Below are positions 24,725-59,494 of a DNA stretch of 64,000 nucleotides, one piece after another (the first letter of the stretch is position 1; the number at the start of each line of letters is the position of its first letter). This DNA is from Candidatus Moraniibacteriota bacterium. GTDB taxonomy: Bacteria > Patescibacteriota > Minisyncoccia > Moranbacterales > UBA2206. Location: NCBI GenBank assembly GCA_003482885.1, contig DMXN01000032.1, forward strand, positions 13,129 to 77,128, in the 5' to 3' direction. Made by a program: the position numbers and the translations under genes. The notes under the pieces were generated by a model. It ran no database searches. It saw only the letters and a list, made by a program, of their open reading frames with translations, and was not told the origin of the DNA.

Positions 24725-24725
24725 T

Positions 24726-24759: not shown

Positions 24760-24780
24760 GAAGTATCAGCATACTTTTAA

Positions 24781-25500
24781 TCAAATATTTTTATCTATTT
24801 CCCTAATAAGCATCTGCCGGAAATTCTTGATGATTGAATGAAAAGAAGCTGGTAAAAATCGTTTCAATTCTCCAGAAAAATTTATATCAGACTTTAAAAT
24901 AAGACTTTTTATTTCTGCTAATTTGTTTTTTTGCTCCGGCATAATCAGTCTTCCGCGCAAAAGAAAATATATATCAAAAAAATCGCGGGGCTTTTGGCGC
25001 GACAATGCTGCTTGAATTTTTTCACCAATCAATTGTTTTGCATTCAAACACACCAAAGTATAACTTGGCAAAAAATCAGAAACTATTGCATGCAATTCTC
25101 CAATAAATTTGGTTTTCTTACGATTGGAAATTTCCAATCGTAATTGAATTGAAAAATCAAAAAATTTACAGATAAAAATTGCCAAAAAACCACCAGAAGT
25201 GGCCTTGGATTCTTGCAAATCAGTTTTAATATTAAAATTTTGCATATTTTTCAAAGTCGCAATCAATAAACTCTCAAGAACTTCCACGGAAAGATTAGAA
25301 GAAAAATCAAGATCTTCGGAAAAGCGCGGAGAATCAAAAATAATTCGCAATGCCGTGCCACCTTTGAAAAAAATATTTTCGCTTTGCGACAATTGATAAA
25401 ATTGCGACAAAAAAATATGCTGGCAATATTCTTGCGCCACATTGAAATCCGAAGTTTGTAATTTTACGGACAATTTTCTAATTTGCTCTTGCGTCATCAT
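24781..25500 (-). CDS. AbiEii/AbiGii-family nucleotidyltransferase toxin (type IV TA), pair #1
   Basis: FFKGGTALRIIFDSPRFSEDLDFSS is the hallmark of the PF08843 family; it overlaps the upstream antitoxin gene by 23 nt. Confidence 0.8.
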   Translation of the reverse strand: MMTQEQIRKLSVKLQTSDFNVAQEYCQHIFLSQFYQLSQSENIFFKGGTALRIIFDSPRFSEDLDFSSNLSVEVLESLLIATLKNMQNFNIKTDLQESKATSGGFLAIFICKFFDFSIQLRLEISNRKKTKFIGELHAIVSDFLPSYTLVCLNAKQLIGEKIQAALSRQKPRDFFDIYFLLRGRLIMPEQKNKLAEIKSLILKSDINFSGELKRFLPASFHSIIKNFRQMLIREIDKNI

Positions 25501-26092
25501 AAAGTTTAGAAACCAAATTATCTATTTGAGAATCGTTAAATAATTTCTGCCATTGCCTTATTTTTTTCTTTATTAAATGAGAAACATCCAGCCTATCATT
25601 GAGTTCAGTTTTTTTTCGGGACAAATAATACAGATAGTCCATTAATGCTTTTTCTGGCTCAGCAATTAAAAATTTTTCATTGTTTTTCTCAATAAGACAA
25701 TATCCGGTAAATAATTTTTTTTTAATTTTGTTGTAGGAAAAATCCTGATCCATTGCCATGAACGAGCGAGTAGCTTTTGAAGAAATAGAGGTAATGGAAT
25801 AAGTTTTTTCCGGAATTATATTATAAAAAGACAAGGCGGATTCCAATGAGATATAAGACGGTTGATAAATTTTATTGGCAACTACGAATACGCTCGGTTT
25901 AATTGAAGCTAGGCAATAAAGTCCGTTTTTGAGTTTTAAAAAGAATTTTTTTTGAGTATATCGACCTATAAATTTGCTAACAGCAAGAGGGGATGTGCTA
26001 AAAATCCTTTGAAACTCGCGCGGACTAAAAATTGCGACATTGCTTTCCAAGAGTTTTTGTTGGACAATCAATGGATTCATTTTTTTTACCAT
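25478..26092 (-). CDS. AbiEi-family antitoxin/transcriptional regulator, pair #1 (probable ATG start at 26092 or 26080)
   Basis: …NGLYCLASIKPS…YQPSYISLESALSFYNIIPE matches the AbiEi_4 pattern. The track start at 26128 is TTG and overlaps the predicted -10 box, so a downstream ATG (MVKKMNPLIV) is preferred. Confidence 0.7.
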   Translation of the reverse strand: MVKKMNPLIVQQKLLESNVAIFSPREFQRIFSTSPLAVSKFIGRYTQKKFFLKLKNGLYCLASIKPSVFVVANKIYQPSYISLESALSFYNIIPEKTYSITSISSKATRSFMAMDQDFSYNKIKKKLFTGYCLIEKNNEKFLIAEPEKALMDYLYYLSRKKTELNDRLDVSHLIKKKIRQWQKLFNDSQIDNLVSKLYDDARAN

Positions 26093-26119
26093 ATAGTATG
26101 AAAAGTGAATTACGCAATC

Positions 26120-26148
26120 ATTATACAAATCCCTTATTTTTCTGTCAA
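26120..26148 (-). promoter_or_regulatory. Consensus sigma70-type promoter driving AbiE pair #1
   Basis: Minus strand reads TTGACA (26148..26143), a 17-nt spacer, then TATAAT (26125..26120). This is a perfect consensus hexamer pair. Confidence 0.45.
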
Positions 26149-26187: not shown

Positions 26188-26223
26188 TTTTTAAGCTCTT
26201 TGTAGTTTAGTTTAAAATTTGAG
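26188..26223. repeat. Copy B of the ~34-bp direct repeat bracketing AbiE pair #1
   Basis: tttttaagctctttgtagtttagtttaaaatttgag lies 27 nt downstream of the DUF1704 stop codon. Confidence 0.4.
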
Positions 26224-26249
26224 AAAAATCAAGACAAAACTAAAAAAAA

Positions 26250-33190: not shown

Positions 33191-33967
33191 TTATCCCAAT
33201 CTCTGCTTGACATATTCCCGAAAACGCAAAACTCTTTCTTGATCATCGGGCTTGAGAAGAAACGGAAAGACATCTTTGGTCAATTTCGCCAAATCTAAAT
33301 CGCCGATTGAGGCTAGTAATTTTTCTTTTAATTCGTCTTTATTTTTAATACCAAATTTAAACGATAAATATTCATAATTAAAATCTCCCCTACCAAGCAA
33401 ATAACTCAGGTCATAAAAATCTCTGCCCTTCATTCTTTTTCTGCCAAAAATAGCTGCCACTTTCATCGACAAAATAATATCAATCGGCGTTATTTTAATA
33501 TTGCGAAATACATCAAACTTTTGCAATAAATAATTTTGTGGCACATACTCAAAACTATGCGGCACTGTGTCAATTTGAATTAGAATTTTTTCATTCTCCG
33601 CCACGCTCAAATTATTTGCTTGCAAAATTCTGGGAATTTTTATGTGGCAATGAAAGGCTCCTTTAAAAACATTCCTCATTTCAATTTCATAACCTTCGAG
33701 TTCCAACTCCTTTTTAATAATTTTTGACAACTCTATGAATTCATCGGCAGTCAAACCGAAATTATCGAAATCCAAGTCTTCGGAAAAACGCGCGCTGCCA
33801 TAACAAATTTTGATGGCTGTGCCACCTAAAAAAGAAAGCTTGGCGCCGATTTCCTGCTTGAAAATTATATCCAAAATTTTGTATTGCAAATATTCCCGCA
33901 AAATACCACGATCAAAACCGACTAAATTATTTGGATAGTGCTTTTTTATTTCACTGATACTGATCAT
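33191..33967 (-). CDS. AbiEii-family nucleotidyltransferase toxin, pair #2
   Basis: LSFLGGTAIKICYGSARFSEDLDFDN; 4-nt overlap with the upstream antitoxin. Confidence 0.8.
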   Translation of the reverse strand: MISISEIKKHYPNNLVGFDRGILREYLQYKILDIIFKQEIGAKLSFLGGTAIKICYGSARFSEDLDFDNFGLTADEFIELSKIIKKELELEGYEIEMRNVFKGAFHCHIKIPRILQANNLSVAENEKILIQIDTVPHSFEYVPQNYLLQKFDVFRNIKITPIDIILSMKVAAIFGRKRMKGRDFYDLSYLLGRGDFNYEYLSFKFGIKNKDELKEKLLASIGDLDLAKLTKDVFPFLLKPDDQERVLRFREYVKQRLG

Positions 33968-34578
33968 AATTTTATAACTTTATTTAATCTTTTAATTTTT
34001 TTGCTTAATGTGTTTGAATTAAATTCTTTTAAATATTTTTTCAATTTTTCTTGATTAATAAGTTCATGATAAATTTCTTCATTTAGTCTTAATTCTGAAA
34101 TATCATCTTCAGTTCGTATATCACTGCGCAAATACAAAAAATCCAAAATCGCTTTTTCCGGCTCGGCGATTTTATATGCCACATTGCCATTGTTAACAAT
34201 TTTATAACCGAAAAACAAATTTTCTTTTATTGAACGATATTGAAAATTGCCAATAGAAGTTTCTAACATTCTGGTTTTTCTGGTCGCAATGCAGGTTGTC
34301 AAAAAAACAACCTCCGGAATTAAGTTGTAAATCCTTAAAGCGGATTCCATGCTGACATAAGACGGCTCGACTAATTTGTTGCTGATAAAATAATTTTCAT
34401 TTTCATCAATCGTCTTGTCCGCGAAAACATAAAATAAATTGAAAAGTTTTTTAATATAACCTTTTTTTTGCCATTCATAAAATCGCCTAGATTCAAAATC
34501 AGGAAAAATATTCTTCACTTCCCGCATATCAATCAGTGCTCGATTTTTAAAAGTATTATAAAAATCTAGATATTTCAT
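33964..34578 (-). CDS. AbiEi-family antitoxin, pair #2
   Basis: …PSYVSMESALRIYNLIPEVVF… matches the AbiEi pattern; 204 aa. Confidence 0.7.
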   Translation of the reverse strand: MKYLDFYNTFKNRALIDMREVKNIFPDFESRRFYEWQKKGYIKKLFNLFYVFADKTIDENENYFISNKLVEPSYVSMESALRIYNLIPEVVFLTTCIATRKTRMLETSIGNFQYRSIKENLFFGYKIVNNGNVAYKIAEPEKAILDFLYLRSDIRTEDDISELRLNEEIYHELINQEKLKKYLKEFNSNTLSKKIKRLNKVIKL

Positions 34579-39105: not shown

Positions 39106-39282
39106 ATGAGTCAAGTTTGCCAAGTTTGCGGCCGTGGTTCCGGATCGGGACATACCGTCAGCCATTCTAATGTTAAAACCTTGCGAAAATTTCGCGTCAA
39201 TTTGCAAAGCAAAAAAATCGATGGCGCAAAAACCAAAGTTTGCGCTAATTGCATAAAAACAATGTCAAAGAGGGGGAGATAG
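39106..39282 (+). CDS. rpmB: 50S ribosomal protein L28
   Basis: [38 protein letters not shown]…; 58 aa. Confidence 0.8.
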
Positions 39283-39304
39283 TTTTTCTTAATTTCGTGA
39301 ACAT

Positions 39305-39343
39305 CAAAAAATCCTCCGAGCTTTCGCAAGGCGGATTTTTTGA
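39305..39343. terminator. rpmB terminator hairpin; copy 1 of a 38-bp repeat flanking AbiE pair #3
   Basis: aaaaaatcctccgagctttcgcaaggcggatttttt. It is nearly identical to the hairpin at 40877-40914, with one mismatch in the stem. Confidence 0.55.
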
Positions 39344-39344
39344 T

Positions 39345-40175
39345 TTATAGCTTCGCATTGATTAGATTCTTTAAAATATTTTTCATATTTTTGCTGACAT
39401 TTTTTATATAATTCGCATCATCAATAAATGCTTCCAAATCCAATTCGATGCTTTTGGTGTCGGCTTTTTTAATATTGTCCAAAAGTATTTTCTTCAAGTC
39501 TTCTAAATTTTTCACATTTTCAATGCAAGAAATATTCGGAATAATTTCTTTTTCCAAATACCACATCAAATCAAAATAATCACGACCTTTAACCATCACT
39601 AAATCATTACCGTTTTTATCCGTTTTTTTCCACTGCCGGTTAAGAACCGCTCGAATTTTTGTCGCCATCAAAGTCGGCAAATCAAATGATTTTATCAAAA
39701 TAGACTTATTATATTTGAATAACGGCAAAATTTCGGTTTTATATTTTTTGCAAAAATCGAATCCGGAAAAAATTTCCACTTTCAAAAACAATAAGTCCGA
39801 CTCGCTTTTTAAGGACAAACCGATTTCATTGAGAATTGGAAATTTCAAATACACTCGAAATTTCTGCGCTGTTGTTTTGACCTGAAAACTATATTTGGCT
39901 TTAAAGAAACTTTCCAAATCACTTTTCAATTCAGTAATATCAACTTCTTTTTTCAAATCGACAAAATCCAAATCCTCGGAAAGCCGCGGCAATTTATGGC
40001 ACTGCGCAAGACACGACCCGCCATAAAAAACCAAATCGCTGTAACGCGGATGGGAATAAATAAAATCCAAAACCAAAATCTGCAAATAATCTTTGAGCAA
40101 ATTACGGTTGTACAGCGCGCTTTTCGAAGATGAATTCTGCAATAAATTTTTTAACTCTTCTTTAAGTCTTTCCAT
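39345..40175 (-). CDS. AbiEii-family nucleotidyltransferase toxin, pair #3
   Basis: LVFYGGSCLAQCHKLPRLSEDLDFVDLKK. Confidence 0.75.
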   Translation of the reverse strand: MERLKEELKNLLQNSSSKSALYNRNLLKDYLQILVLDFIYSHPRYSDLVFYGGSCLAQCHKLPRLSEDLDFVDLKKEVDITELKSDLESFFKAKYSFQVKTTAQKFRVYLKFPILNEIGLSLKSESDLLFLKVEIFSGFDFCKKYKTEILPLFKYNKSILIKSFDLPTLMATKIRAVLNRQWKKTDKNGNDLVMVKGRDYFDLMWYLEKEIIPNISCIENVKNLEDLKKILLDNIKKADTKSIELDLEAFIDDANYIKNVSKNMKNILKNLINAKL

Positions 40176-40819
40176 AGTTTTATTAAAATATTATAAAGCT
40201 CGCGCATTTTTTCTGATTTTTCCAGTTCAATATATTTTTTTAATTCGCTGATGTCATTGCTTTTTAATTCGCTTAAATTCAAACGCAATTCTTTGATCGC
40301 ACTTTCGGATAATAACATTTTTTTTCGAAAATACAAAAAATCAAAAAGCGCTTTGGCGACAGTCGCTTTTTTAAATGAAAAATTATTTTCTTTTAAAATC
40401 TTAAAACCGCAAAATAATTCAGGCTTAATGCTATGGTAATAAAAATTGTCTAAATTATTTGTCAACAGCTTTGTCTTTTTAAGAGCAACTGCCGTATAAT
40501 TTTTCGGCATTTCCGTTAAAAGATTATTTTCGGACAAAATATAATCCATGCTCAAATAGCTCGGTTCATAGATTATTCCGGAAACAAATTCTTCGTATCC
40601 GGTAAATAGATTTTTTCTTTTAATATCCTCTATATAATCAGCAGAAACATACATGCCTTTTTTAAGGCGAATGATTTTTCCGTTTTTTGAAAAACGCGAA
40701 AGCAGAACACGCAAAAAATGCCGGTTTTTTTCAATAGAAAAAACACTCTCCAGTGTAAAATACGGCAAAGTCTTCAAATGGTTTATTATATTGGCTGTTT
40801 TCGATATGTCATTTCTCAT
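40151..40819 (-). CDS. AbiEi-family antitoxin, pair #3
   Basis: …KGMYVSADY…YEPSYLSMDYILSENNLLTE; overlaps the toxin start by 25 nt. Confidence 0.7.
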   Translation of the reverse strand: MRNDISKTANIINHLKTLPYFTLESVFSIEKNRHFLRVLLSRFSKNGKIIRLKKGMYVSADYIEDIKRKNLFTGYEEFVSGIIYEPSYLSMDYILSENNLLTEMPKNYTAVALKKTKLLTNNLDNFYYHSIKPELFCGFKILKENNFSFKKATVAKALFDFLYFRKKMLLSESAIKELRLNLSELKSNDISELKKYIELEKSEKMRELYNILIKLWKDLKKS

Positions 40820-40876
40820 AATATACTACTATTGTATATTATGAGAAACAACTTGTCAAGTCAAGCAAACCAAAAC

Positions 40877-40940
40877 AAAAAAATCCTCCGAGCTTTCGCA
40901 AGGAGGATTTTTTTGTCCCCTCTCCTTGCTAAGGAGAGGG
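40877..40940. terminator. Tandem hairpins downstream of ndk: copy 2 of the 38-bp repeat plus a 10-bp-stem hairpin
   Basis: aaaaaaatcctccgagctttcgcaaggaggattttttt (perfect 13-bp stem) and ccctctcctt-gct-aaggagaggg (40918-40940). Confidence 0.55.
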
Positions 40941-40952
40941 CTAGGGTGAGGT

Positions 40953-41576
40953 TTATTCCAAAATCCCGTCCAAATTTACATCATAAAGAATTTGTTCTTG
41001 GACAAGGCGATAATTCAAAATTTCGTTTTCTGAAAACCAAATTGGGATTTCTTTTTCCGCTTCTTCCGTGTTTCCCGAAGCATGGATCAGATTGCGAATA
41101 CTTCTTTGATCAAGATCAGCCATTTGATAAGTATCCAAAGTGAAATCGCCCCGAATTGTTCCGATATCGGACGACAATGGCTCCGTTCCTCCGGTAATTT
41201 TTCTGACCAATCCCGCGGCTTGATTGCCTTGCCAGATCATCGCGATAACCGGACCAGAACTTAAATATTTGGCGTTTGATTTCATAATGGCAATGCCGTT
41301 TTCTTTGAACGAGGCAAAGGGCGATTTTAGTCCCTTTTTTTCATAAGCCGCCGCCGCTTTTCTGCCCACCTCTTCCAACCATGCGTCACCGCCTACTTCA
41401 TAATAATGCTTGGTAGCCATTTCTTCTGTCGCAATAAGCATTTTCAATGCCACCATTTTCAAACCGACTCGCTCGTACCTTTTAATAATTTCCCCGATTA
41501 AAGTTCTCTGCACTCCGTCCGGTTTGATAATAACCAGCGTCCTCTCCTTGCTTGGATGATTTTTTTTGTCCGTCAT
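40953..41576 (-). CDS. ndk: Nucleoside diphosphate kinase with an internal insertion and a C-terminal extension
   Basis: ERTLVIIKPDGVQRTLIGEIIKRYERVGLKMVALKM and NLIHASGNTEEAEKEI (catalytic His). About 207 aa against the usual ~140; a ~30-aa insert follows the HYYEV region. Confidence 0.8.
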   Translation of the reverse strand: MTDKKNHPSKERTLVIIKPDGVQRTLIGEIIKRYERVGLKMVALKMLIATEEMATKHYYEVGGDAWLEEVGRKAAAAYEKKGLKSPFASFKENGIAIMKSNAKYLSSGPVIAMIWQGNQAAGLVRKITGGTEPLSSDIGTIRGDFTLDTYQMADLDQRSIRNLIHASGNTEEAEKEIPIWFSENEILNYRLVQEQILYDVNLDGILE

Positions 41577-41687
41577 TGTTTTGATAAAATTAAAAATTAT
41601 TACTTTAATAAAAAACGGCATAAACCGTTTTCAGCCAATTTCAGTTTAGCAAAATGAGGAAAATAAATCAAACCGTTTCGCGGTTCT

Positions 41688-42866
41688 TTATTCTTTCAAG
41701 CTATCTATTTTTTTCAAATCAAAAATATTTTTTATCAGCATTTTTTTCTCAACAGCAAACTCATCAAACAGTTTTTTCTGTTCTTTATTCATTTCTGAAT
41801 TATACTTCGCTTCAATCAATGTTTTTCTTTCCGTCAAAAAATCAATTTCATTTTTTTCTCGATAAACATAGCGCGGATTGAGTTTTTTTATTTTCAAATA
41901 GACATAATTTTCAAATAAACTGCCCTTATCGCGAAAACCGGTAAAATATACGCGGATTCCCAAATCTGCGGCATAGATTTTCTTAGCGGATAATAATCGC
42001 TCGTTGGTTTTCCCGAAACGCGACACTAAAAAAATCAGATATGAATCAGCGAACATTTTCAAATATCTCTTGGCTGAATCTGGAGATATATCCAAAATTT
42101 TAGCGATTTTATTGATACTAATAATCTTGCCGGCTCTTTCCATAAGCAAAAGAAAAAAATCCTTAAGAATCTGCGTGTCTTTCACTCCATAGAAAGCGGC
42201 AATATCTTTTTGAATTATATCATCCACTAATTCTTTCAAATATTCAGTATTGCCGGTTAAGACATATTCAGGCATTCCGCCGGTTCGCATAAAATCCTCA
42301 AAATGGCGTTCCAATAAATGCTTATCAGTTTTTTTGACTATAATTTTTTTAAATCGCAAATATTCCTCAAAATCCAACGGTAAAACTTCAAGCGCGATAT
42401 TTCGTCCGGTTAAAAAAGCCTTCTTGCTTTTCAAAAGCGAAGCACTGGATGAAGAAGCGAAAATTTTAACATTTTGCTGATCATAAATATTTTTAAGCTG
42501 CAACTCAAAATCTTTTTGATAAGCGACTTCGTCCAAAAAAAGATAAACTTTTTTAGAAAAAACGATTTTATGAATTTTTCGATATTCATCGATAATTTCC
42601 AAAATATTTTTATTGGCCAAAAGATAATCATCCATACTCGCGTAAAAAATCAATTTTGGGTTGATTTTCATTTCAGCTATAAGATAATAAATAAGTTGCT
42701 TCATTAAGGTGGTTTTGCCAACACGCCGCAGTCCGGTCAAGAAAATGATCTGCTTGGTAGCTAAATTATCTTTTAGCGCTTCAAAAATTTGCGGTCTGTC
42801 AATAATGTTTTTTAGCTCAAATTCACCTTCCCACCAAGGATTATAACGATACAATATTTGTTCCAT
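41688..42866 (-). CDS. AAA+ ATPase (AAA_14 plus DUF4143 type)
   Basis: NPWWEGEFE…IIFLTGLRRVGKTTLMKQL is the Walker A region, with the typical ~390-aa architecture. Confidence 0.75.
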   Translation of the reverse strand: MEQILYRYNPWWEGEFELKNIIDRPQIFEALKDNLATKQIIFLTGLRRVGKTTLMKQLIYYLIAEMKINPKLIFYASMDDYLLANKNILEIIDEYRKIHKIVFSKKVYLFLDEVAYQKDFELQLKNIYDQQNVKIFASSSSASLLKSKKAFLTGRNIALEVLPLDFEEYLRFKKIIVKKTDKHLLERHFEDFMRTGGMPEYVLTGNTEYLKELVDDIIQKDIAAFYGVKDTQILKDFFLLLMERAGKIISINKIAKILDISPDSAKRYLKMFADSYLIFLVSRFGKTNERLLSAKKIYAADLGIRVYFTGFRDKGSLFENYVYLKIKKLNPRYVYREKNEIDFLTERKTLIEAKYNSEMNKEQKKLFDEFAVEKKMLIKNIFDLKKIDSLKE

Positions 42867-43140: not shown

Positions 43141-44661
43141 TTAAGGGGAAGGAATTTTTGCCTTTTTGTTTTCGTTCATCAATTTGCTCATTTTTATTTT
43201 TGGGTTTATCCCTAATTCAAAACATTTTCTTGCCCACGATTCGATCTTTTGTTTTAGAATTATAGAATTAATTCCAGATATTTTTTTAGGTAAATTCTTG
43301 TTTTGTATAACTAACCAAATGCAGTAATTTTTAAAATTAGTGTCTACTTTTTTTATATTTGCTTTTTTGCTAATCAGTTCTAATGTGTTATTTGCTTGAT
43401 CACAGACATAACCTAATTTTTGTGCAGTTCCAAATTTTACGGCATAAACAGTTTCACCTTTTTTTGAATCCCACGCCTCAATCAGTGTCCCAGCTTTAAC
43501 TTTAATGATTGAAAAATTTTTATCAGCATTTGTATACCCGTGTTTTTTTAGATTTTCATTAAAATCATCTTCTACCCCAGTAATTTCAAGTAAATCATTT
43601 TCCACTTCTTCAAGATCAATACTATCTATGTATTCGTTTAACTGATCTATGTAATCCTCATTAAATTTCATCCATTTACCTTGTGTTAGAAGTACATTCT
43701 GATCATCTATTATGTAATCAATAGATTCCTTTACGGTTTTTGAGAAAGGCTTTGCATCTTCTTTGATGATGTGAACTCTGATATTTAGGATTTGCTCTTT
43801 TGATATAGAATGCGTTAATATAAAAGCCTTTAATTTGTCGATTGAGAGATCTTCAAATTCACCCGAAGCATAACTGTCTAAGGAAAATTTATATTTTTCT
43901 TGTCCAGAGAAAATAAAATCAATTCCAATAAGTTCGTGACTATTTGAAGTAAAATCTGTGCCTTCCCTTGCAGAGATAATTTCTTCTACTAATTTATTCT
44001 CATACCCTTCTGTTATGGGGGTTGCATCAAGGATTACAGTTCTTGGTAGTTTAAATAATTCAGGTAACTCATAAGCTTTGATTATTGATTCTAAAAATAC
44101 CGCCAGTGTTTCTTTTTCGATTATCGGACTCAACAATGAAGAAGAGCCAAATTTGCCAGATTTACCAAAATCTTTTATAAAATCTTTCGAAATAGATGAT
44201 TGTAAATAATCAATAGATTCCCCACTTTCGATGTCTAGTTGGCTGTTTTTTGTATAGCTCTTTATTTCTTTTTTCTTTTTTCCCGCGAATTTTTTTGACG
44301 ATTTTTGTCTAATATCTTTCTGGTTTGCAATTCTTTTGGCTATATGAATACCGAAATCATGGTCACAAAATTGGCGTAGATAAAAATGTGATTTTCCATA
44401 GCTTAATGCGAAACAATATTTTTCATTTTTCCAAATATAGGCACAATAAAATATTTTATTTTCAGGTTTATCCCCAGTAAAGAAATCTTTATATGTAGTT
44501 ACCCATGGAATTTGAATCGGATCTATATCTTTAGAGAAATAAAAATCAGCCTTCCATCCATTTTGTTCGGTGGAGTTAATATTTTTAAGTCCCAATAATT
44601 CAAATTTATCTTTTAAATTAGCGACTTTATCCTTTGGAATTTTGAATATATTTAGCTTCAT
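43141..44661 (-). CDS. Hypothetical 506-aa protein linked to the type IIS R-M cluster (possible nuclease/accessory component)
   Basis: No motif recognisable by eye. It starts 2 nt after the stop of the beta-class MTase gene upstream. Acidic and Lys-rich. Confidence 0.35.
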   Translation of the reverse strand: MKLNIFKIPKDKVANLKDKFELLGLKNINSTEQNGWKADFYFSKDIDPIQIPWVTTYKDFFTGDKPENKIFYCAYIWKNEKYCFALSYGKSHFYLRQFCDHDFGIHIAKRIANQKDIRQKSSKKFAGKKKKEIKSYTKNSQLDIESGESIDYLQSSISKDFIKDFGKSGKFGSSSLLSPIIEKETLAVFLESIIKAYELPELFKLPRTVILDATPITEGYENKLVEEIISAREGTDFTSNSHELIGIDFIFSGQEKYKFSLDSYASGEFEDLSIDKLKAFILTHSISKEQILNIRVHIIKEDAKPFSKTVKESIDYIIDDQNVLLTQGKWMKFNEDYIDQLNEYIDSIDLEEVENDLLEITGVEDDFNENLKKHGYTNADKNFSIIKVKAGTLIEAWDSKKGETVYAVKFGTAQKLGYVCDQANNTLELISKKANIKKVDTNFKNYCIWLVIQNKNLPKKISGINSIILKQKIESWARKCFELGINPKIKMSKLMNENKKAKIPSP

Positions 44662-44662
44662 G

Positions 44663-45445
44663 TTAAATGTTTGGCGTTAATCTTTTTTTAGCAATCCCTA
44701 CATATTGCTTTTCTTTTTCAATCCCAATCCAATCCCGACCAAATTTTTTAGCTACAAAAGCTGTAGTTCCGCTTCCTAAGAATGGATCCAAAATAATGTC
44801 GCCCTTGCTGGAGCTTGCTAAAATTATTCTTTTTAGCATTTCTTCTGGTTTTTGAGTTGGATGCAACGCCTTACCGTCTTTGCCTCGTACTCTTTCTTTG
44901 CCTTGAACTAATGGTAATTCCCAAAAGTCACGCATTTGTTTTTCGGTTCCATCTTTTTGTTTTTCAGGATTTATTTCTTTAATTTTTTTATAATTAAAAG
45001 TCCAGCCACTACCTTTGACAGCCCAGATTACAAATTCTGTTGCGTGAGTAAACACCCTCCTTGTCATATTCGGCATGGCGTTCGTTTTATACCAAGTAAT
45101 GATGTTATTTACTTTGAAATCAAGCTGTTTTAGTACAATCATTACTTCTCCAATGTTGTGATAACTGCATGCGATGTAGATTGATCCTGTGTCTTTTAAA
45201 ACTTTGTGGCAAGCTCCGATCCATTTTCTTGTAAACTGTAAATATTCAGGCGCTGTCATTTTGTCCCAATGTTCATTTACCATATACCAATCTCCACCAG
45301 TTTTGCTACCTTGCCATTTTAAACCATTGCCAGATAAATTATATGGAGGATCAGCAAAGACAAGATCAATAGAACTCTTATCAATCTTTGTATTGAGTAT
45401 GCTTATGCAATCGTCGTTGTAGATAATATTTTTTTTCATACTCAT
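44663..45445 (-). CDS. Beta-class DNA methyltransferase (N6-adenine or N4-cytosine)
   Basis: Motif IV DLVFADPPYNLSGNG is N-terminal. Motif I DIILDPFLGSGTTAFVAKKFGRDWIGIE is C-terminal. Confidence 0.8.
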   Translation of the reverse strand: MSMKKNIIYNDDCISILNTKIDKSSIDLVFADPPYNLSGNGLKWQGSKTGGDWYMVNEHWDKMTAPEYLQFTRKWIGACHKVLKDTGSIYIACSYHNIGEVMIVLKQLDFKVNNIITWYKTNAMPNMTRRVFTHATEFVIWAVKGSGWTFNYKKIKEINPEKQKDGTEKQMRDFWELPLVQGKERVRGKDGKALHPTQKPEEMLKRIILASSSKGDIILDPFLGSGTTAFVAKKFGRDWIGIEKEKQYVGIAKKRLTPNI

Positions 45446-45448
45446 AGG

Positions 45449-47266
45449 TTAAAAATTTAGACTTTTTTGCCATGACGAAATGGCATTTGGGATATTCCTA
45501 AGCCAGCCATCTGAATCGCTAAAAGAATTTGATGAATTGATTATTTCATCGTATAGGCGAGCAATTTCGCTATGTTTTAAAAATTTATTCTCTGTTTTTA
45601 TCTGTACGAGTACTTTCAAAAGAGACACGAAATTGTTTATTGATAAAGGAATTATTTTTTGTTTATTACCCTCGTATTCATATTTTATGGCCGTCCAAAA
45701 GGTATTTATAGTATCTCTGTGCATTTGGGGAGCAATAAACAAGCAATATGTAGTTTTGTCACTATGTTTATTTTCAAAATCTCTTAAATGTCTCATCACT
45801 GGTTGCCCCTCGTTATACCACTGATCTCTGCCCGTTAGCATTGTTGCCTCACAAATAGCATTAAAACTTTGATAAAAACACTCAATATCTGGCGTGTTTG
45901 CTGGTGCTGTAAATGTTGGTTCGTTATCATCGCCGACTGGATAGTTTGGCTGTATTTTTAATGCATCGTTCAGGGCATTCAGACCCAATGATGATAACTT
46001 TTCAAGCAGTATTGGTCTGTCTTCAGATTCAAAAATATTTTCAAATTCTTGAATGTAGGATTTAATTTGTTCTGTGTCTTGTGACTTTTGATGATTTTGT
46101 TTGTCTTGTAGCTCTCTTCGATAGTTTCGCAGTTCATTGATAAATTTTTTCAATCTATCTTCATCTAGTTTTTGATAATCCAAAAATACTTTTGGCGTTA
46201 TCCTCGTTTCTCGTTCAAATAACTTTATATCTTCAAGCAATTTTATGGCAATTTCAATAAGCTTTTCTTTAGTTTCCCATGGTAATTTTGGCTCAGAGAT
46301 GTCAGAAATATAGTCTAAGTATTTCTCTTTTGATTCAAATGTCTTTGATTGAGCATTATCAAAATCCAACAAAGCATCAATTTCAACCGATCTTCTCGGC
46401 TCCAGATCAATATAAAAACCACCACCCCGTATATAAATATAGCGAGTTAGGCGGAAGTATCTGATAGCGTTGTCTCCATAGTCTTTGAGATTTTTTAGTA
46501 GCTTTTGAATTTCTGTAGTATTTGGTTTTCCAATAAATTCCCGTGCGAAAGTTTTTTTATATTTGTCTCGGATTGTTTTTTGTTCCTGCTTCGGTTTGTC
46601 TTTAAGGTCTTTTCGTAATGCGATAATTTTTTCAGAATAAATTTCTATATCTTCATAATTAACAAGGGTTGGACAAAATAAAGAAAATTCTTCCTTACTT
46701 ATTCCTTTTTCTTTTTCTCCTGATTTCCTAGATTTTTTATTTACTTCCCGAATAAGATGAAGCACGCCGACAAATGGTTCTATGTTGTATCCATCTTCAA
46801 GTTTATAGTCATCACTATCAGGGTTTGGGATTTGCCACTTGATAAAACTTCTAAAGAATATTTCACCAAGATCAAAATCGTCTTTTAGAAATAGTTTTCC
46901 TAAGCTGGTTATACAGATTTTTTCATCTTTAATGACAGCAAGCCCAAATTTTTTAAGAGGGTTTATTGATTGCCGCCCTCTCATTGAAGGATCTTTATAG
47001 TTTTTAGCATTAAAAATCGTTTCGGCTTGTTCAAAGGTAATTGTTTTTGTTTGATCGTCAATTAAATCAATTTGTTCATAAGATAATCCATTGTAAAATT
47101 GGTTGCTTCCATAGCCGTAAACCCTTTCTTTTATCAAAAGAATTTGATATTTTCTCTGACTTTCTAAATCCCACTTACAATTTTCAAGCTGTTTTAAAAC
47201 AATTAAAAAATCTCTCAATCTTTCAGGATTTCTTAGTGTTGTAGTAATTGACCAAGGTTTTTTCAT
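45449..47266 (-). CDS. AlwI/BstNBI/MlyI-family type IIS restriction (or nicking) endonuclease
   Basis: N-terminal WSITTTLRNPERL…, mid-protein IEPFVGVLHLIREVNKK and C-terminal YCLFIAPQMH…IIPLSINNFVSLLKV parallel the conserved blocks of Nt.BstNBI/AlwI-family enzymes; 605 aa. Confidence 0.65.
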   Translation of the reverse strand: MKKPWSITTTLRNPERLRDFLIVLKQLENCKWDLESQRKYQILLIKERVYGYGSNQFYNGLSYEQIDLIDDQTKTITFEQAETIFNAKNYKDPSMRGRQSINPLKKFGLAVIKDEKICITSLGKLFLKDDFDLGEIFFRSFIKWQIPNPDSDDYKLEDGYNIEPFVGVLHLIREVNKKSRKSGEKEKGISKEEFSLFCPTLVNYEDIEIYSEKIIALRKDLKDKPKQEQKTIRDKYKKTFAREFIGKPNTTEIQKLLKNLKDYGDNAIRYFRLTRYIYIRGGGFYIDLEPRRSVEIDALLDFDNAQSKTFESKEKYLDYISDISEPKLPWETKEKLIEIAIKLLEDIKLFERETRITPKVFLDYQKLDEDRLKKFINELRNYRRELQDKQNHQKSQDTEQIKSYIQEFENIFESEDRPILLEKLSSLGLNALNDALKIQPNYPVGDDNEPTFTAPANTPDIECFYQSFNAICEATMLTGRDQWYNEGQPVMRHLRDFENKHSDKTTYCLFIAPQMHRDTINTFWTAIKYEYEGNKQKIIPLSINNFVSLLKVLVQIKTENKFLKHSEIARLYDEIINSSNSFSDSDGWLRNIPNAISSWQKSLNF

Positions 47267-47268
47267 AA

Positions 47269-49077
47269 TTATTTTGTTACATTACAATAAAAAATTCGTT
47301 CGGCGTTTCCATCGCCATTGCTTTTCCCAGCAGTGAACGCCTTATAATCTCTTTCAAAAATTTCTACTTCACCTTTGTTTTTTAATATTCGTAAAATATC
47401 ATTGTCGTTTATTCTAGCATTTGAGCGCCCATCTTTTGAATCCCCAGTATTATTATAAGACAATAATATATGTTTACAATTTACATTTTTAATTAAGTCC
47501 TCAAATGCCTGTGTAGCATTTTTAAGGCAATAGGAGCTTTTTATGTGGGAGCGATCCATTTTTTTTGCTACTCCTTCAACATTAGGTTTTTTCCATTCAG
47601 CTAAATTTTCCAGTAAATGATAGGCATCTGAATATTGACGCGAGTTATAGGGCGGATCTATGTATAAAACATCGCAAACAATTTTTCTAATCAAGATATT
47701 TGCGTCTTCTTTGTAAATATCGTTATTTCCGTTATTTAAGTGGTCAATATCTGGGGCTAAAAGTTTTACTGGCTGTAGCATGTCTAAATCTTTACGAAAA
47801 GCGTCATAATGTCCGACGGTATTTGCAACCTTGTCAACGGCATAAATTAAGGAACAGATGAGAATGTTTTTTTCTTCTTCCGTTTCGGCAATTCTTTCTA
47901 TTTCTTCACGGATTGCCCCAATCTTTCTAGCATTTTCTAGTGAAAAATAAGTATTACCAAAGTATTTTGAAAAATAATTATCTTGATCAGTTTTCAAATT
48001 ATTGAGAATATCAATTTTATCCGCAATGTTCTGAATAGGTGAATTTGTACCAAGAAACGTTTTTAGACAAACATAATTTGTAAAAAGGAAATCATTAGAA
48101 ATAATTTTTATTTCTGGTTTATTAAATCTTTCTCCGACAACACCTGTCCCTGCGAAAATATCACAAAATGATTTTATTCCGTTGCATTTTTCTGCGACAA
48201 TATCTTCAATAAATCCGAGCAGTTTATATTTATTACCTAAGTATCTTCTATTTTGCAATTGGAAGGTATTGTTTTGAGTTTTTGAAAAGTGAAAATAGGG
48301 TTTGTCAATTTTTTGTATGGTCGTTACCTCGTAGGCTAGTTTTTCAATTTCAAGTAAGGCGAAAAGAGTACCCTGTATTCCGTCAGCGACATAATCAAAC
48401 CCCTCTTTTTTCTTTTTTAACTTTTCGTAAAAACTATAATGATTATTTTCAGAAACAATAATGAAATCAATAACGGGAATACCCATTATTTCTCCCGCTT
48501 GTGCAATTTTTTCAACAACTTCAATATCTTTTTCGCTTGGCGAAGAATCACCTGAAGGGTGATTGTGAATTAGAATAACGCTGGCGGCGTTTAATTCCGT
48601 AGCTGGGTAGAAAATTTCTCTTGGGTGTAGTAATGCCTTATCTAATAGTCCGATGCTAACGACTTCCTTTTTGAGTAGGGAATTTCTAGCATTAAGATAC
48701 AAACAGACCAGATGTTCTTTTTTCTTATCCCTTAAATCGTAAGTAAGAGACAGAACATCTTGGGAATTTTTGATAATAATCTCGTTTGATTTTTCATCCG
48801 CATAAAATCTTTTTACCAACGAAATTGCGGAAGTAATTTGTAGTGCTTTAGCTTGACCAATACCCGAAATCTCTAAAAGATCATCAACGGTTATATTCAA
48901 AAAGTTTTTACCGAATTTTTTAATAATACTCTCCGAAAGTTGCCTAACATTTTTACCTTTTATACCACTGCCTAAAAGAATCGCCAAAAGATCACTTTTT
49001 GAAAGTGCGTCAGCCCCTTTTTTTAGAAATTTTTCTCTCGGGCGATCAATTTTTGGTATATCCTTAATTTTTGGCAT
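47269..49077 (-). CDS. Fusion protein: RadC-like JAB/MPN domain (N-terminal) plus Dam-family (alpha-class, D12) N6-adenine DNA methyltransferase (C-terminal)
   Basis: N-terminal MPKIKDIPKIDRPREKFLKKGADALSKSDLLAILLGSGIKGKNV…ILIHNHPSGDSSPSEKDI is the RadC JAMM motif. The C-terminus reads RRYLGNKYKLL…FCDIFAGTGVVG…ISND…VLYIDPPYNS, the Dam motifs. Confidence 0.7.
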   Translation of the reverse strand: MPKIKDIPKIDRPREKFLKKGADALSKSDLLAILLGSGIKGKNVRQLSESIIKKFGKNFLNITVDDLLEISGIGQAKALQITSAISLVKRFYADEKSNEIIIKNSQDVLSLTYDLRDKKKEHLVCLYLNARNSLLKKEVVSIGLLDKALLHPREIFYPATELNAASVILIHNHPSGDSSPSEKDIEVVEKIAQAGEIMGIPVIDFIIVSENNHYSFYEKLKKKKEGFDYVADGIQGTLFALLEIEKLAYEVTTIQKIDKPYFHFSKTQNNTFQLQNRRYLGNKYKLLGFIEDIVAEKCNGIKSFCDIFAGTGVVGERFNKPEIKIISNDFLFTNYVCLKTFLGTNSPIQNIADKIDILNNLKTDQDNYFSKYFGNTYFSLENARKIGAIREEIERIAETEEEKNILICSLIYAVDKVANTVGHYDAFRKDLDMLQPVKLLAPDIDHLNNGNNDIYKEDANILIRKIVCDVLYIDPPYNSRQYSDAYHLLENLAEWKKPNVEGVAKKMDRSHIKSSYCLKNATQAFEDLIKNVNCKHILLSYNNTGDSKDGRSNARINDNDILRILKNKGEVEIFERDYKAFTAGKSNGDGNAERIFYCNVTK

Positions 49078-54057: not shown

Positions 54058-54771
54058 TCAAGAAAAATCGCCCGAACTTTTTTTCAATCCTTCGCGATAA
54101 AGTTTCAGTTGAAATATCAAATCTTTTTTCAAGTTATTTTTCACCCAATCTTTTTGTTTGGCATCCAGCAATTCTCCCAAACCTTGCAAGATATATTTGT
54201 TGTCAAATTTTTCCAAAATCTCTATAGATTTTTCGATATAATCAAGAATATTTTTTTTTGTTTTTTTAACAATCGTTTCTTTATTAATATCCCAATGTTT
54301 TGAGAAAAAGCAATGAACATCAAAAAAATCACGCGAGGCTGTTTTTTTTCTGTCCGCCAGCGCCGCCAATTTGCAAGCAAACATATCGCCTGGTTCCATA
54401 ACTTTCATTGAAATGCCGAGATAATCTTTTACTAAAAACTTTCCGGCGCTTCCTCTTCTCGAAATTTCTATTTTAATATTTCTTTCATTTTTTCCGTACG
54501 AAAGCAGAAAAAAAATAGTATAACGCTTTATATGTTTTTCCATGATTTCCCCATGCTTTGAAAGAATTTTTTCCAACTCCACAAAAACTACTTTTTCTTT
54601 TTCCTCGCTTAATAAATCAAAATCCAGATCAACGCTATAGCGAGGTAAATCATAAAAAAGATACGCCGCCGTACCACCCTTAAATCCCAAATAAGGCGCG
54701 ACAGAAAGCGTTTCATAAATATCTTTTAAAATTTCAACCATTGCGGTTTTGTGCAATTCCCAATTAAGCAT
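54058..54771 (-). CDS. AbiEii-family nucleotidyltransferase toxin, pair #4
   Basis: LGFKGGTAAYLFYDLPRYSVDLDFD. Confidence 0.75.
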   Translation of the reverse strand: MLNWELHKTAMVEILKDIYETLSVAPYLGFKGGTAAYLFYDLPRYSVDLDFDLLSEEKEKVVFVELEKILSKHGEIMEKHIKRYTIFFLLSYGKNERNIKIEISRRGSAGKFLVKDYLGISMKVMEPGDMFACKLAALADRKKTASRDFFDVHCFFSKHWDINKETIVKKTKKNILDYIEKSIEILEKFDNKYILQGLGELLDAKQKDWVKNNLKKDLIFQLKLYREGLKKSSGDFS

Positions 54772-55333
54772 AGTTTTTTTTGTAAAAAGTTATATGTTCT
54801 TCCGTTTTTTTATTGCCGTAAATCGGCGCAAGAGCCAAGCATTCTTTCCAATCGATATTTTTTAAATTGTCAAAATAATAGTTGGGGTTAATATAAATCA
54901 TATCGAGAAACGCTCGTTCTTTATTGGCTATAGAAAAACCATTTTCTTTTCGAACTCCGTATTGATTCAAAAGCGCGGTTTTTTTTATTTTCCGGTAAAC
55001 TATTTTTTGACCGTTTGCCAATTCGATTTCTCTTGAAAAACAACCAGCCGCAAAAATCGTTTCGTAGTGCTGAAAAATAACTCCTTCATTTCTAAGCACG
55101 GTTTCAAAGCTGATATACGATGGGGAATAAATTTTTGCCACCGCCTCATAAATATTATATTCCAACTTTGCGTAGATTCCTCGTCTAAGATGGACGAGAT
55201 TGCCTTTATTAGTATAATATTTAAGACTGGCTTTAAGTTTATTCAGATTGTCTTCACCCCAAATCAAGCCTATTTCACTGGCCGTAAAAACGGTGTTTTT
55301 AGTTTGATAAAGGCTTAGAATGCGGTTTTCCAT
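54764..55333 (-). CDS. AbiEi-family antitoxin, pair #4
   Basis: …LRRGIYAKLEY…YSPSYISFETVLRNEGVIFQ; 8-nt overlap with the toxin. Confidence 0.7.
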   Translation of the reverse strand: MENRILSLYQTKNTVFTASEIGLIWGEDNLNKLKASLKYYTNKGNLVHLRRGIYAKLEYNIYEAVAKIYSPSYISFETVLRNEGVIFQHYETIFAAGCFSREIELANGQKIVYRKIKKTALLNQYGVRKENGFSIANKERAFLDMIYINPNYYFDNLKNIDWKECLALAPIYGNKKTEEHITFYKKNYA

Positions 55334-59106: not shown

Positions 59107-59111
59107 AAAGT

Positions 59112-59480: not shown

Positions 59481-59494
59481 TTTTCTTGTTTTTC

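Follow-up and report, generated by a model that had tools for sequence, protein, structure and literature searches.

Gene content of the rpmB-ndk locus

The window (the whole 64-kb stretch of DNA that was analysed) contains a 1,536-nt segment that encodes only two genes and is bracketed by two copies of a hairpin-forming sequence, with rpmB converging on it from one side and ndk from the other (Table 1). The two genes overlap by 25 nt and encode a DUF1814 (AbiEii) toxin and, upstream of it, an AbiEi protein comprising a winged helix-turn-helix and a C-terminal domain. The AbiEii protein matched PF08843 at 70.7 bits (cut-off 22.5), while the match of AbiEi to Pfam AbiEi_4 was weak and fell under the cut-off of that family. 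A promoter with inverted repeats is present, as a sequence feature, within about 60 bp of abiEi, and its box is kept in homologous cassettes (L079, L080, L119, L094, and others). The 24-nt inverted repeat is the likely AbiEi operator; AbiEi from Streptococcus agalactiae binds inverted repeats of its own promoter (PMC3985639). Homology detected by blastn between the window cassette and that of L080 begins at window position 40860, and the insert ends 0-3 nt after the abiEii stop codon.

The AbiE systems described by Dy et al. (2014; PMC3985639) are bicistronic, overlapping abiEi-abiEii operons that encode a DUF1814 nucleotidyltransferase toxin and stabilise replicons. The window pair resembles them in its overlapping genes, its inverted repeats, and a promoter at most about 60 bp from the abiEi start. 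It differs in that the window proteins are related to those of Streptococcus at the profile level only, and that study describes module function and not chromosomal insertion. These features identify the operon at 39345-40819 as an AbiE type IV toxin-antitoxin pair, whose predicted toxicity, neutralisation by the antitoxin, and GTP binding are backed only indirectly, by purifying selection (see below).

The rpmB gene is syntenic with M50 peptidase and YebC genes in relatives, and the true start of ndk is probably at 41576. JGI, Logan, and ENA assemblies together contain 18 contigs, reaching 131-142 kb, with a protein identical to Ndk, and the cassette was present at three of three places among the matches listed. 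Because the cassette recurs beside an identical Ndk in separate assemblies, the locus is not an assembly artefact. An exact-protein look-up of L28 returned no match.

Table 1. Features of the rpmB-ndk locus and of the first AbiE pair in the window (window coordinates).
Feature	Position	Strand	Remarks
AbiE pair 1 (abiEii 24781-25500, abiEi 25478-26128)	24781-26128	-	Between MATCAP-like gene and PBP1A gene
Pair 1, downstream copy of ~38-46-nt target duplication	24725-24762		Holds promoter and RBS of PBP1A gene (22133-24724, -)
Pair 1, upstream copy	26188-26226		34/39 identical; Shine-Dalgarno AAGGAG decayed to AAAGAG
rpmB (ribosomal protein L28, 58 aa)	39106-39282	+	PF00830, E 7e-15; converges on cassette
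Left hairpin copy	39306-39341		Stem mismatch C at 39332; -19.3 kcal/mol (+), -20.5 (-), z about -5.5
abiEii (DUF1814 nucleotidyltransferase toxin, 276 aa)	39345-40175	-	PF08843, E 2e-19; PADLOC AbiEii, E 1.5e-29
abiEi (antitoxin/repressor, 222 aa)	40151-40819	-	PADLOC AbiEi, E 2.5e-45, full length
24-nt inverted repeat	40803-40826 / 40834-40857		83% complementary; spans -10 box and abiEi start
Cassette promoter (TTGACA, 17 nt, TACAAT)	40831-40859	-	11/12 consensus positions
5' edge of insert (17 nt private sequence)	40861-40877		Between right copy and start of L080 homology
Right hairpin copy	40878-40913		Perfect stem, 15-nt arms 40875-40889 / 40902-40916; -23.5 kcal/mol, z -6.9
ndk-proximal hairpin	40918-40940		CCCTCTCCTT-GCT-AAGGAGAGGG; 10-bp stem in fold; also at L006 empty site
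ndk (nucleoside diphosphate kinase)	40953-41621	-	PF00334, E 2e-37; 75 homologous loci

A duplicated hairpin brackets the cassette

The 36-nt core of the repeat, AAAAAATCCTCCGAGCTTTCGCAAGG[C/A]GGATTTTTT, occurs in two copies in direct orientation, both on the plus strand and 1572 nt apart from start to start, that are identical at 35 of 36 positions and throughout the 12-nt loop. When two small indels are allowed, similarity extends over ~42 nt (39300-39341 versus 40874-40913). Only these two copies match anywhere in the window at up to three mismatches, and 0.00 matches are expected by chance (100 dinucleotide shuffles). The left copy begins 23 nt past the rpmB stop (39282) and reaches to within 3 nt of the AbiEii stop codon (39345-39347). 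The right copy sits upstream of AbiEi, immediately beyond the -35 box and at a distance of 58 nt from the start (40819). The earlier note had described a repeated hairpin with a shared loop and a single stem mismatch that exactly brackets the AbiEii/AbiEi cassette; with its coordinates shifted by 1-2 nt this description holds, the copies lying at the rpmB/abiEii and abiEi-promoter/ndk edges. A second hairpin, ndk's own and absent from that note, lies between the ndk stop codon and the right copy.

Stable folding was predicted for either strand of both copies, at -19.3 to -23.5 kcal/mol (z from -5.4 to -6.9); none of 200 shuffles folded as stably, and a T-run follows the stem on each strand. 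A stable stem with a U-run on both strands, just past converging stop codons, is what characterizes a bidirectional intrinsic terminator. The left copy would accordingly serve as a bidirectional terminator for rpmB (plus strand) and AbiEii (minus strand), and the right copy would terminate ndk and also insulate the abiE promoter. No Rfam family reached its gathering score, and the weak matches mirrored the terminator-like shape only.

Terminators in these genomes commonly have the stem AAAAATCCTCC/GGAGGATTTTT. With its loop included, the hairpin has no further copy in the window, and in 854 kb of fetched loci (mostly from Moranbacteria) it was found only at the same locus in L079, so that the possibility raised earlier of a generic repeat spread throughout the genome finds no match in the sequence covered.

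Empty sites in related genomes

Genes for rpmB and ndk were identified as adjacent and convergent, and without the cassette, in eight related species-level genomes (L004, L006, L009, L015, L020, L023, L029, and L030), all genomes compared being metagenome assemblies. The intergenic region in these eight is 43-117 nt long and holds one hairpin each, consisting of an A-run, a stem, and a T-run. The closest cassette-free relative, L006, carries a single hairpin with the same stem, AAAAAATCCTCC/GGAGGATTTTTT; sequence to its left aligns with the rpmB-side flank of the window and sequence to its right with the ndk-side flank, the CCCTCTCC hairpin included. Judged by these alignments, the ndk-proximal hairpin belongs to the original site and was not duplicated. 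The L006 hairpin has a 4-nt loop (GCTT) versus 12 nt in both window copies, and the exact pre-insertion sequence is therefore seen only as an orthologue.

These sites bear out the earlier proposal that rpmB and ndk once converged on one shared bidirectional terminator, along with its expectation that relatives lacking the cassette carry one hairpin copy, and they dispose of the concern that the two genes might never be adjacent in relatives. The alignments show that the repeat is derived from the target. The rpmB-ndk locus constitutes a before-and-after pair, with one terminator when empty and one on each side when occupied.

We also considered whether the ndk-rpmB interval is a general insertion hot spot. 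Among 12 more distant relatives whose ndk-rpmB site is also occupied, no duplicated hairpins were detected, and the extra genes at some of these sites, as judged by eye, look like housekeeping genes (a YrdC/Sua5-like protein of ~190 aa and D-Ala-D-Ala ligase); this idea was dropped on both grounds.

Age and maintenance of the insertion

In the closest relative, L079, the same cassette follows right after one hairpin copy, and a second copy lies downstream. DNA identity between the window and L079 is 85.5% in the cassette and 85.7% in flanking core genes, and dS values are 0.53-1.08 for the cassette and 0.65-0.73 for the flanking M50 and YebC genes. This concordant divergence shows that the insertion is old and vertically inherited. 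The dN/dS values against L079 are 0.05 for abiEii and 0.15 for abiEi, indicating purifying selection. The conservation of both hairpins despite a dS of 0.5-1 since insertion suggests that they are functional.

The two L079 copies enclose 1.74 kb of extra genes, and given these genes the original insert could have been larger than the insert in the window today. Later rearrangements in L079 have their break points exactly at hairpin edges, and both L079 copies share one substitution relative to the window copies.

Flanking duplications recur among AbiE cassettes

Pair 1, another AbiE pair in the window, is also flanked by a direct repeat (Table 1). The genes on its two sides are adjacent in L163 and L165, and the empty site in L163 carries one copy of the repeat. 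Window AbiE pairs 2 and 4 showed no flanking repeat above noise. A direct repeat detected in a sliding scan (250-326 / 2047-2123) corresponds to the pair of Walker-A modules in a uvrA-like gene truncated by the window start and was rejected as a cassette.

Screening of 61 cassettes, from a family of roughly 1,700 members, revealed strong flanking direct repeats (score of at least 44) in 12. None of 114 shifted pseudo-cassettes reached that score, nor did any of 1500 mismatched flank pairs, the highest null score being 37 (Fisher p = 1.5e-6 and 4e-18, respectively). A flanking repeat was not seen in the remaining 49 of 61, window pairs 2 and 4 among them. A homologous cassette in UBA9338 (L080-83; 77% DNA identity) lies between a gene for a 688-aa protein and lgt, inside a perfect 15-nt repeat, AGTTGGGGGAATTAA, that comprises the stop codon of the upstream gene and the lgt Shine-Dalgarno sequence. 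Eleven further members of the family have unrelated flanking repeats of 23-157 nt.

Across the 13 cases the insert measures 1.43-1.77 kb. In 12 of 13, a distance of 44-88 nt separates the end of the upstream copy from the abiEi start, and in 9 of 13 the downstream copy begins no more than 18 nt away from the abiEii stop, overlapping the stop slightly in three. The 13 flanking repeats, of 15-157 nt, are mutually unrelated in sequence, and the same promoter-to-stop architecture is found at sites that are themselves unrelated. The youngest cases are L116, which looks the most recent and whose repeats agree at 151 of 157 positions, L155, and L133.

Probable insertion with duplication of the target

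Collectively, we consider it highly probable that an AbiE cassette inserted into the terminator shared by rpmB and ndk and that the whole ~36-42-bp palindrome was thereby duplicated on both sides. In an ancestor of the Moranbacteria lineage, convergent rpmB and ndk would have had one bidirectional intrinsic terminator, into which a minimal AbiE addiction/defence cassette, with its own promoter at one end and the abiEii stop codon at the other, would have entered. Each neighbour would then have retained a terminator, with the left copy also ending abiEii and the right copy protecting the autoregulated abiE promoter against read-through from ndk. If the repeats recombined, the cassette would be removed precisely, and toxin-mediated post-segregational arrest should select against such loss.

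The event is an insertion with a long, variable target duplication and is neither site-specific nor of the transposase type. Of the two routes in the earlier note, a long target-site duplication is supported by the empty sites and by the recurring duplication of local sequence; its picture of how AbiE modules colonise the genome gains from a second case in the window with an empty site in L163 and from the 12 of 61 surveyed cassettes. Its att-like alternative did not survive, given the unrelated local repeats that flank other cassettes and the lack of an integrase in the 64 kb. Among nearly all non-nested window ORFs of at least 150 aa, no integrase or transposase was identified, and the only recombination-type genes encode RecA, RuvC, and FtsK. 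Terminal inverted repeats were not found at the cassette ends (25 longest inverted pairs; junctions inspected by eye). A DNA transposon or insertion sequence was rejected on the lack of both transposase and such repeats and on the variable duplication length. Duplication of the CRISPR-repeat or casposon type and integron attC recombination were set aside, as no Cas1 or IntI is encoded in the window and the repeats are unrelated between sites. Plasmid and phage collections contained no AbiEii relative above 32% identity, and no vehicle was found among them.

Joining was probably host-mediated, through either template switching or a staggered break. Our tentative preference is for replication-linked template switching, in which a nascent 3' end, its copy of the hairpin complete, would stall or dissociate at the palindrome, copy incoming cassette DNA via microhomology, and rejoin the chromosome upstream of the hairpin to copy it again. 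In effect, foreign DNA would have been captured at the junction of a tandem duplication.

A staggered double-strand break differs from template switching in the joining chemistry only. Here the palindrome, as a hairpin or cruciform, would be cut on opposite strands at its two bases, a junction-resolving or hairpin nuclease being one candidate, which would leave the whole palindrome as a single-stranded tail on each end; once these tails were filled in and end-joined to a linear cassette, it would be present twice. The duplicated segment coincides with the entire palindrome including its 15-nt arms, and the later rearrangements in L079 also break at hairpin edges. Each copy is, in addition, internally symmetric 2-3 nt past the shared core; however, 9 of 39 comparable terminator hairpins extend at least 2 nt past their runs, so that the symmetry is not significant and was likewise rejected as a signature of fold-back synthesis. 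Other family repeats are not palindromic, and those of 55-157 nt are hard to obtain from two nicks. We regard the staggered break as possible but somewhat doubtful, and rank it nearly as likely as template switching.

The presence of the stem motif at unrelated Moranbacteria terminators bears on a reading without target duplication, in which the cassette brought its own look-alike terminator with a CCTCC/GGAGG type stem that was later matched by gene conversion or selection. Because the stem is a common terminator motif, this course is conceivable; the substitution common to both L079 copies hints at concerted evolution, and the L006 loop is unlike that of the window. However, the 35/36 identity continues through the 12-nt loop, and homologous cassettes (L080 and 11 others) have no such hairpin and end 0-18 nt past the stop codon. 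Twelve other cassettes, including pair 1 and L080, duplicate local sequence, which in two is a gene 5' end. Duplication is therefore the rule in this family, which weighs against a cassette-borne terminator and makes it improbable.

Equally improbable is that the promoter-to-stop module is a self-inserting toxin-antitoxin element whose own proteins promote target-duplicating insertion with no need of a recombinase. [quoted passage not shown]

Integration of a circular unit of abiE plus hairpin by a recombinase of the tyrosine, serine, or Xer type supplied in trans is very improbable. The repeat is an imperfect palindrome of att- or dif-like size, and the cassette plus one repeat unit makes a tidy 1,572-bp circle. 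However, related cassettes elsewhere are flanked by unrelated 15-157-nt repeats of local coding or regulatory sequence, and the cassette ends are not conserved, with the distance from junction to -35 box varying by roughly 9-57 nt. No recombinase gene was found in the window, and the spacer of Xer-type sites is shorter than the 12-nt central region of the hairpin, which is too long for this role. Finally, the cassette could have landed by chance between two copies, already in place, of a dispersed REP- or MITE-like terminator element, one of the classes of flanking repeats given by Furuta et al. (PMC2853133). This has next to no probability in view of two copies in 64 kb, recurrence in 854 kb of related loci only at the orthologous L079 position, and one hairpin, not two, between ndk and rpmB of relatives.

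Comparison with known insertion systems

A 2000 paper in Gene 259:99 is reportedly the source for insertion with long target duplication. The precedent and criteria used here follow Furuta, Abe and Kobayashi (2010; PMC2853133), who call for a complete module inside the repeats, an insert of <20 kb without a linked mobility gene, a duplication of >30 bp, alignment of both repeats to a single sequence at another genome's empty locus, and no further copy in the genome. At the rpmB-ndk locus, abiEi and abiEii both lie inside the repeats, the insert is far below that size, the window ORFs scanned hold no mobility gene, the duplication is 36 nt without gaps, and both repeats align to one sequence at the empty L006 locus. 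The requirement of a restriction-modification (RM) cargo separates the two, the cargo here being AbiE.

[quoted passage not shown] Target duplications of RM systems include examples of 26 to 65 bp in the passages of PMC2853133 used here and are given as 'in the order of 100 bp' in those of a 2014 review (PMC3874152). It is unlike RM insertions in its host (CPR/Patescibacteria), in its target, a whole bidirectional terminator, and in its cargo, a type IV toxin-antitoxin/abortive-infection pair. The toxin of this pair is a nucleotidyltransferase and not a nuclease, and DNA breakage by the restriction enzyme, the common cause suggested by those authors, therefore cannot apply. In the parts of this work from the Kobayashi laboratory that we cite (PMC2853133, PMC3874152), insertion with long target duplication is ascribed to RM systems only. 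Against that record, AbiE constitutes a new class of cargo for an architecture that is itself known from RM systems.

Like transposons, the AbiE insertion has target sequence duplicated on both sides, and long, variable target duplications (19-26 bp) are described for Mycoplasma IS1630 in the same portions of PMC2853133. Unlike transposons, the AbiE insert shows neither transposase nor terminal inverted repeats, and its duplication is not fixed in length but ranges from 15 to 157 nt.

Toxin-antitoxin genes are frequent cargo of integron attC cassettes and Xer-dependent pdif modules. The AbiE loci share small cargo and direct or palindromic repeats with these and with the integrase-mediated att duplications of prophages and islands at tRNA genes. 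In contrast to the AbiE loci, where repeats differ in sequence and length at every site and no recombinase was found, those systems need a dedicated recombinase and a conserved core site common to independent insertions.

Implications for the spread of addiction modules

The spread of two-gene defence/addiction modules without a mobility gene is poorly understood. The rpmB-ndk insertion is not a one-off, as promoter-to-stop limits of this kind, with target duplications of 15-157 nt, are shared by thirteen independent cassettes. As AbiE carries no nuclease, self-inflicted DNA breaks, the explanation offered for RM genes, need not be invoked, which suggests that the insertion is the work of the host and that selection then retains it. 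With middling confidence we hold it likely that addiction/defence modules generally enter streamlined genomes by host-mediated, cargo-independent insertion with long target duplication. Such insertion can be harmless in a dense CPR genome because terminators, promoters, RBSs, stop codons, or gene 5' ends get copied, and the duplication leaves both neighbouring genes intact. The 13 junctions provide a concrete set for testing insertion models.

The Cassette Is Bracketed by a Duplicated, Terminator-Like Hairpin

As an earlier note had claimed, the AbiE cassette between rpmB (+) and ndk (-) is bracketed by two copies of one hairpin in direct orientation; they are identical at 35 of 36 positions and share a 12-nt loop. 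Nothing else in the 64-kb window matched at up to three mismatches, and shuffled sequences searched for the repeat yielded zero matches. Predicted folds of both copies (-19.3 to -23.5 kcal/mol; z of -5.4 to -6.9) consist of a 12-15-bp stem, a smaller stem inside it and a tetraloop, and in both a T-run follows the stem on either strand; an Rfam search returned no family accounting for the hairpin. On the left, 23 nt separate the rpmB stop codon from the beginning of the hairpin, whose far end comes within 3 nt of the abiEii stop codon. The right copy is located 58 nt upstream of where abiEi begins, just beyond the predicted promoter and an inverted repeat. The inner edges of both symmetric copies abut cassette DNA. 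Symmetry reaches 2-3 nt past the shared core; considered as a trace of fold-back synthesis, this is not significant (9 of 39 comparable terminators extend at least 2 nt by chance).

Pfam matches uphold the identities of L28 (the rpmB product), NDK, and AbiEii, and PADLOC recovered AbiEi (E = 2.5e-45) and AbiEii (E = 1.5e-29). Contigs from three assembly sources, 18 in all, encode the identical Ndk protein, and the cassette is present at each of the three places listed; the locus structure is therefore not an assembly artefact. The abiEi ATG follows the predicted -10 box by only about 11 nt, with no Shine-Dalgarno between them, and the operon transcript may be leaderless or near-leaderless; this tight layout recurs in L079 and L080 (two homologous loci) and in several further family members.

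Coordinates of features in the window and in two related loci (L079, L116; own numbering)
Feature	Position	Strand	Detail
Left hairpin copy	39306-39341	+	AAAAAATCCTCCGAGCTTTCGCAAGG[C/A]GGATTTTTT
Right hairpin copy	40878-40913	+	AAAAAATCCTCCGAGCTTTCGCAAGG[C/A]GGATTTTTT
Extended symmetry, left copy	39303-39344		ATC-A6...T6-GAT
Extended symmetry, right copy	40875-40916		AC-A7...T7-GT
Predicted cassette promoter			TTGACA-17-TACAAT; upstream of abiEi, on the inner side of the right copy
24-nt inverted repeat			Spans abiEi start codon
Predicted -10 box to abiEi ATG	40817-40836
Second hairpin, unduplicated	40918-40940		Between right copy and ndk stop
AbiE pair 1	24781-26128		Bracketed by its own ~38-46-nt direct repeat
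Pair-1 repeat copies	24725-24762 and 26188-26226		34/39 identical
Defence and addiction regions	15703-17912; 24781-26128; 33191-34578; 39345-40819; 43141-49077; 54058-55333; 41688-42866; 57367-58497
T4SS-pilin/TrbC-like paralogues	58609-60918		Two
Repeat family	58638-59992		Three copies of 194 nt, 60-71% identical
77-nt direct repeat	250-326 / 2047-2123	-	Two GxSGSGKS Walker-A motifs
L079 later rearrangements	3250-3310; 4838-6576; 6577-6690		Break points all at hairpin-copy edges
L116 target duplication	1518-1671 / 3246-3402		154/157 nt, 151/157 identical

Relatives Carry a Single Hairpin at the Empty Site

Scanning species-representative genomes for Ndk yielded 75 loci, mostly titled Moranbacteria, Parcubacteria, or Patescibacteria; all genomes compared here are metagenome assemblies. 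L28 was encoded within the fetched flank of 20 loci, and in eight of these (L004, L006, L009, L015, L020, L023, L029, and L030) ndk and rpmB converge directly across an intergenic region of 43-117 nt that contains one A-run/stem/T-run hairpin. In the closest cassette-free relative (L006; Ndk 91% and M50 peptidase 85% identical), the single site has the stem AAAAAATCCTCC/GGAGGATTTTTT as in the window, followed by a CCCTCTCC hairpin. Multiple alignment pairs the left half of this site with the rpmB-side flank of the window and the right half with the ndk-side flank. Since this single site aligns to both flanks, it bears out the central prediction of the earlier note, namely that relatives would have an empty site with one hairpin, although its loop of 4 nt, versus 12 nt in the window copies, marks it as an orthologue rather than the exact pre-insertion allele. 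Together with its loop, the hairpin is absent from the rest of the 854 kb of fetched loci, the exception being the orthologous place in L079; the bare stem motif is a common terminator type among those loci.

L079, the closest relative, has the cassette directly after one hairpin copy and a second copy further along, which places the insertion before its split from the window lineage and after the split from the L006 lineage. DNA identity to the window is 85.7% for flanking core genes and 85.5% for the cassette. The cassette genes have dS values (0.53 and 1.08) of the same order as M50 (0.73) and YebC (0.65) next to them, and dN/dS is 0.05-0.15; together these values indicate that the module has been vertically inherited and retained under selection. 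That the hairpin copies differ at one position after so long a time argues that both may be functional, or may have been homogenised. Since then L079 has acquired 1.74 kb, with a 151-aa ORF and a TrmB-like gene, precisely between the stop codon of abiEii and the downstream copy; ndk and the CCCTCTCC hairpin have been lost, again precisely at a hairpin edge, the outer one of the upstream copy. An ADK-like gene stands in ndk's place at that edge, and GCAAAC, the new outer flank there, is the reverse complement of GTTTGC on the cassette side.

Some Other AbiE Cassettes Lie within Unrelated Local Repeats

The window contains four mutually divergent AbiE pairs. The direct repeat that brackets pair 1 is made up of the predicted PBP1A promoter and ribosome-binding site, and the Shine-Dalgarno has decayed in the upstream copy of the repeat. 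The genes flanking pair 1 are adjacent in two relatives (L163 and L165), with a single repeat copy at the empty site of L163. Flanking repeats were absent from pairs 2 and 4. Among the families listed in a search of the whole window for direct repeats within 8 kb, the two AbiE-bracketing repeats were the only non-coding close matches.

The AbiEii family is large (1,679 homologues), and many members, at 60-67% identity, are spread across several CPR phyla. Next in similarity is a cassette from Moraniibacteriota UBA9338 (L080-83), 82% identical in protein and 77% in DNA, whose site, flanked by a 688-aa gene and lgt, is unrelated to that in the window. Bracketing this cassette is a perfect 15-nt repeat, AGTTGGGGGAATTAA, which forms the end of the upstream gene, including its stop codon, and doubles as the predicted lgt ribosome-binding site. 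The window and L080 cassettes are homologous between the -35 box and the stop codon, beyond which homology ceases.

We surveyed 79 metagenomic loci fetched with the family alignment, defining the abiEi-abiEii pair in each and aligning its 300-nt upstream and downstream flanks with each other. Twelve of 61 real cassettes scored at least 44 (range 44-281), as compared to none of 1500 mismatched flank pairs (mean 20.1, max 37; Fisher p = 4e-18) and none of 114 shifted pseudo-cassettes from the same loci (max 32; p = 1.5e-6). L080, which scored 30 and thus fell under the threshold, was counted as a thirteenth case; four-fifths of the surveyed cassettes had no detectable flanking repeat. The repeats (15, 23, 26, 27, 36, 39, 41, 55, 69, at least 77, 79, 101, and 154 nt) are mutually unrelated in sequence, and some are gene 5' ends. 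In L119, for example, the repeat encodes the N-terminus of an apparent family-2 glycosyltransferase; decay of the upstream copy has given it a stop codon. The geometry of cassette and repeat is constant. In 12 of 13 cases the upstream copy stops 44-88 nt short of the abiEi start, just beyond the -35 box; in nine, the downstream copy begins no more than 18 nt from the abiEii stop (overlapping it slightly in three); and inserts measure 1.43-1.77 kb. Inspection of the cassette ends by eye revealed neither a conserved terminal motif nor a terminal inverted repeat. The longest duplication, in L116, is also the youngest-looking and is built of repeated GACCCCAGAG / CCACTGGGGTC hairpin units; this locus is a good candidate for a polymorphic empty site.

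Insertion Class and Proposed Mechanism

Collectively, the one-hairpin empty sites and the repeats copied from local target sequence identify the locus as an insertion with a long, variable target duplication, one of two origins that the earlier note had proposed. The Kobayashi laboratory defined this category for restriction-modification systems; it comprises complete modules of less than 20 kb with no mobility gene and with flanking repeats of more than 30 bp that align to one sequence in an insert-free genome (PMC2853133). The AbiE locus shares every property tested except cargo, which here is a type IV toxin-antitoxin pair (PMC3985639) rather than a restriction-modification system. In a later review, that group attributes such insertion to restriction-modification systems alone (PMC3874152), and our literature search, which was not exhaustive, turned up no published case in either toxin-antitoxin genes or CPR bacteria. 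The AbiE case is a new cargo class and a new phylum for a known, little-studied kind of insertion, and the family-wide pattern makes its mechanism testable.

The repeats are copies of the target and the inserted unit runs from promoter to stop codon, while repeat length and sequence depend on the site and no recombinase is linked. We infer that insertion was an illegitimate, host-mediated event. Our favoured, if tentative, account of the joining is replication-linked template switching, in which a nascent end already past the target segment would copy foreign cassette DNA and then re-enter upstream, leaving a tandem duplication whose junction holds the cassette. Such switching would fit any repeat length, and a palindrome would be an obvious place for stalling. 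A staggered break, with one cut at each base of the hairpin, followed by fill-in and end joining, would explain the window locus nearly as well; the 55-157-nt repeats at other cassettes strain this account. The other origin proposed in the earlier note, site-specific recombination at an att-like hairpin, is rejected, as those homologous cassettes that have flanking repeats lie between local sequences differing in length and identity by site, that of L080-83 lying inside an unrelated 15-nt repeat at an unrelated place, and no recombinase gene for such integration was found among the window ORFs scanned.

No integrase or transposase was found by Pfam among nearly all non-nested window ORFs of at least 150 aa, in which the only recombination-type matches were RecA, RuvC, and FtsK; nor did catalogued plasmids and phages contain a close relative of the AbiEii toxin. 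For restriction-modification insertions, breakage by the restriction enzyme has been offered as a hypothesis in the defining paper (PMC2853133). Because AbiEii is not a nuclease, that hypothesis is unnecessary for this mode of insertion. Survivorship probably also shapes the pattern, in that in compact genomes only insertions duplicating the overlapping signals of both neighbours would be harmless. The direct repeats would permit precise deletion of the cassette, which a stabilising toxin-antitoxin module would penalise; AbiE stabilises plasmids (PMC3985639).

Other Features of the Window

Defence and addiction genes are unusually abundant in the window. Besides the four AbiE pairs, these include a TdeIII-like endonuclease with a methylase, a further block (DUF6119, a methylase, an AlwI-like endonuclease, and a RadC/methylase fusion), and two AAA_14/DUF4143 ATPases. 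The 77-nt direct repeat near the window start was considered as a cassette and rejected; it looks like part of a uvrA-like gene running off the window start, which accounts for the lack of a listed ORF at this position. The T4SS-pilin/TrbC-like paralogues and the 194-nt repeat family look like a small tandem gene family encoding putative pilin-like proteins.
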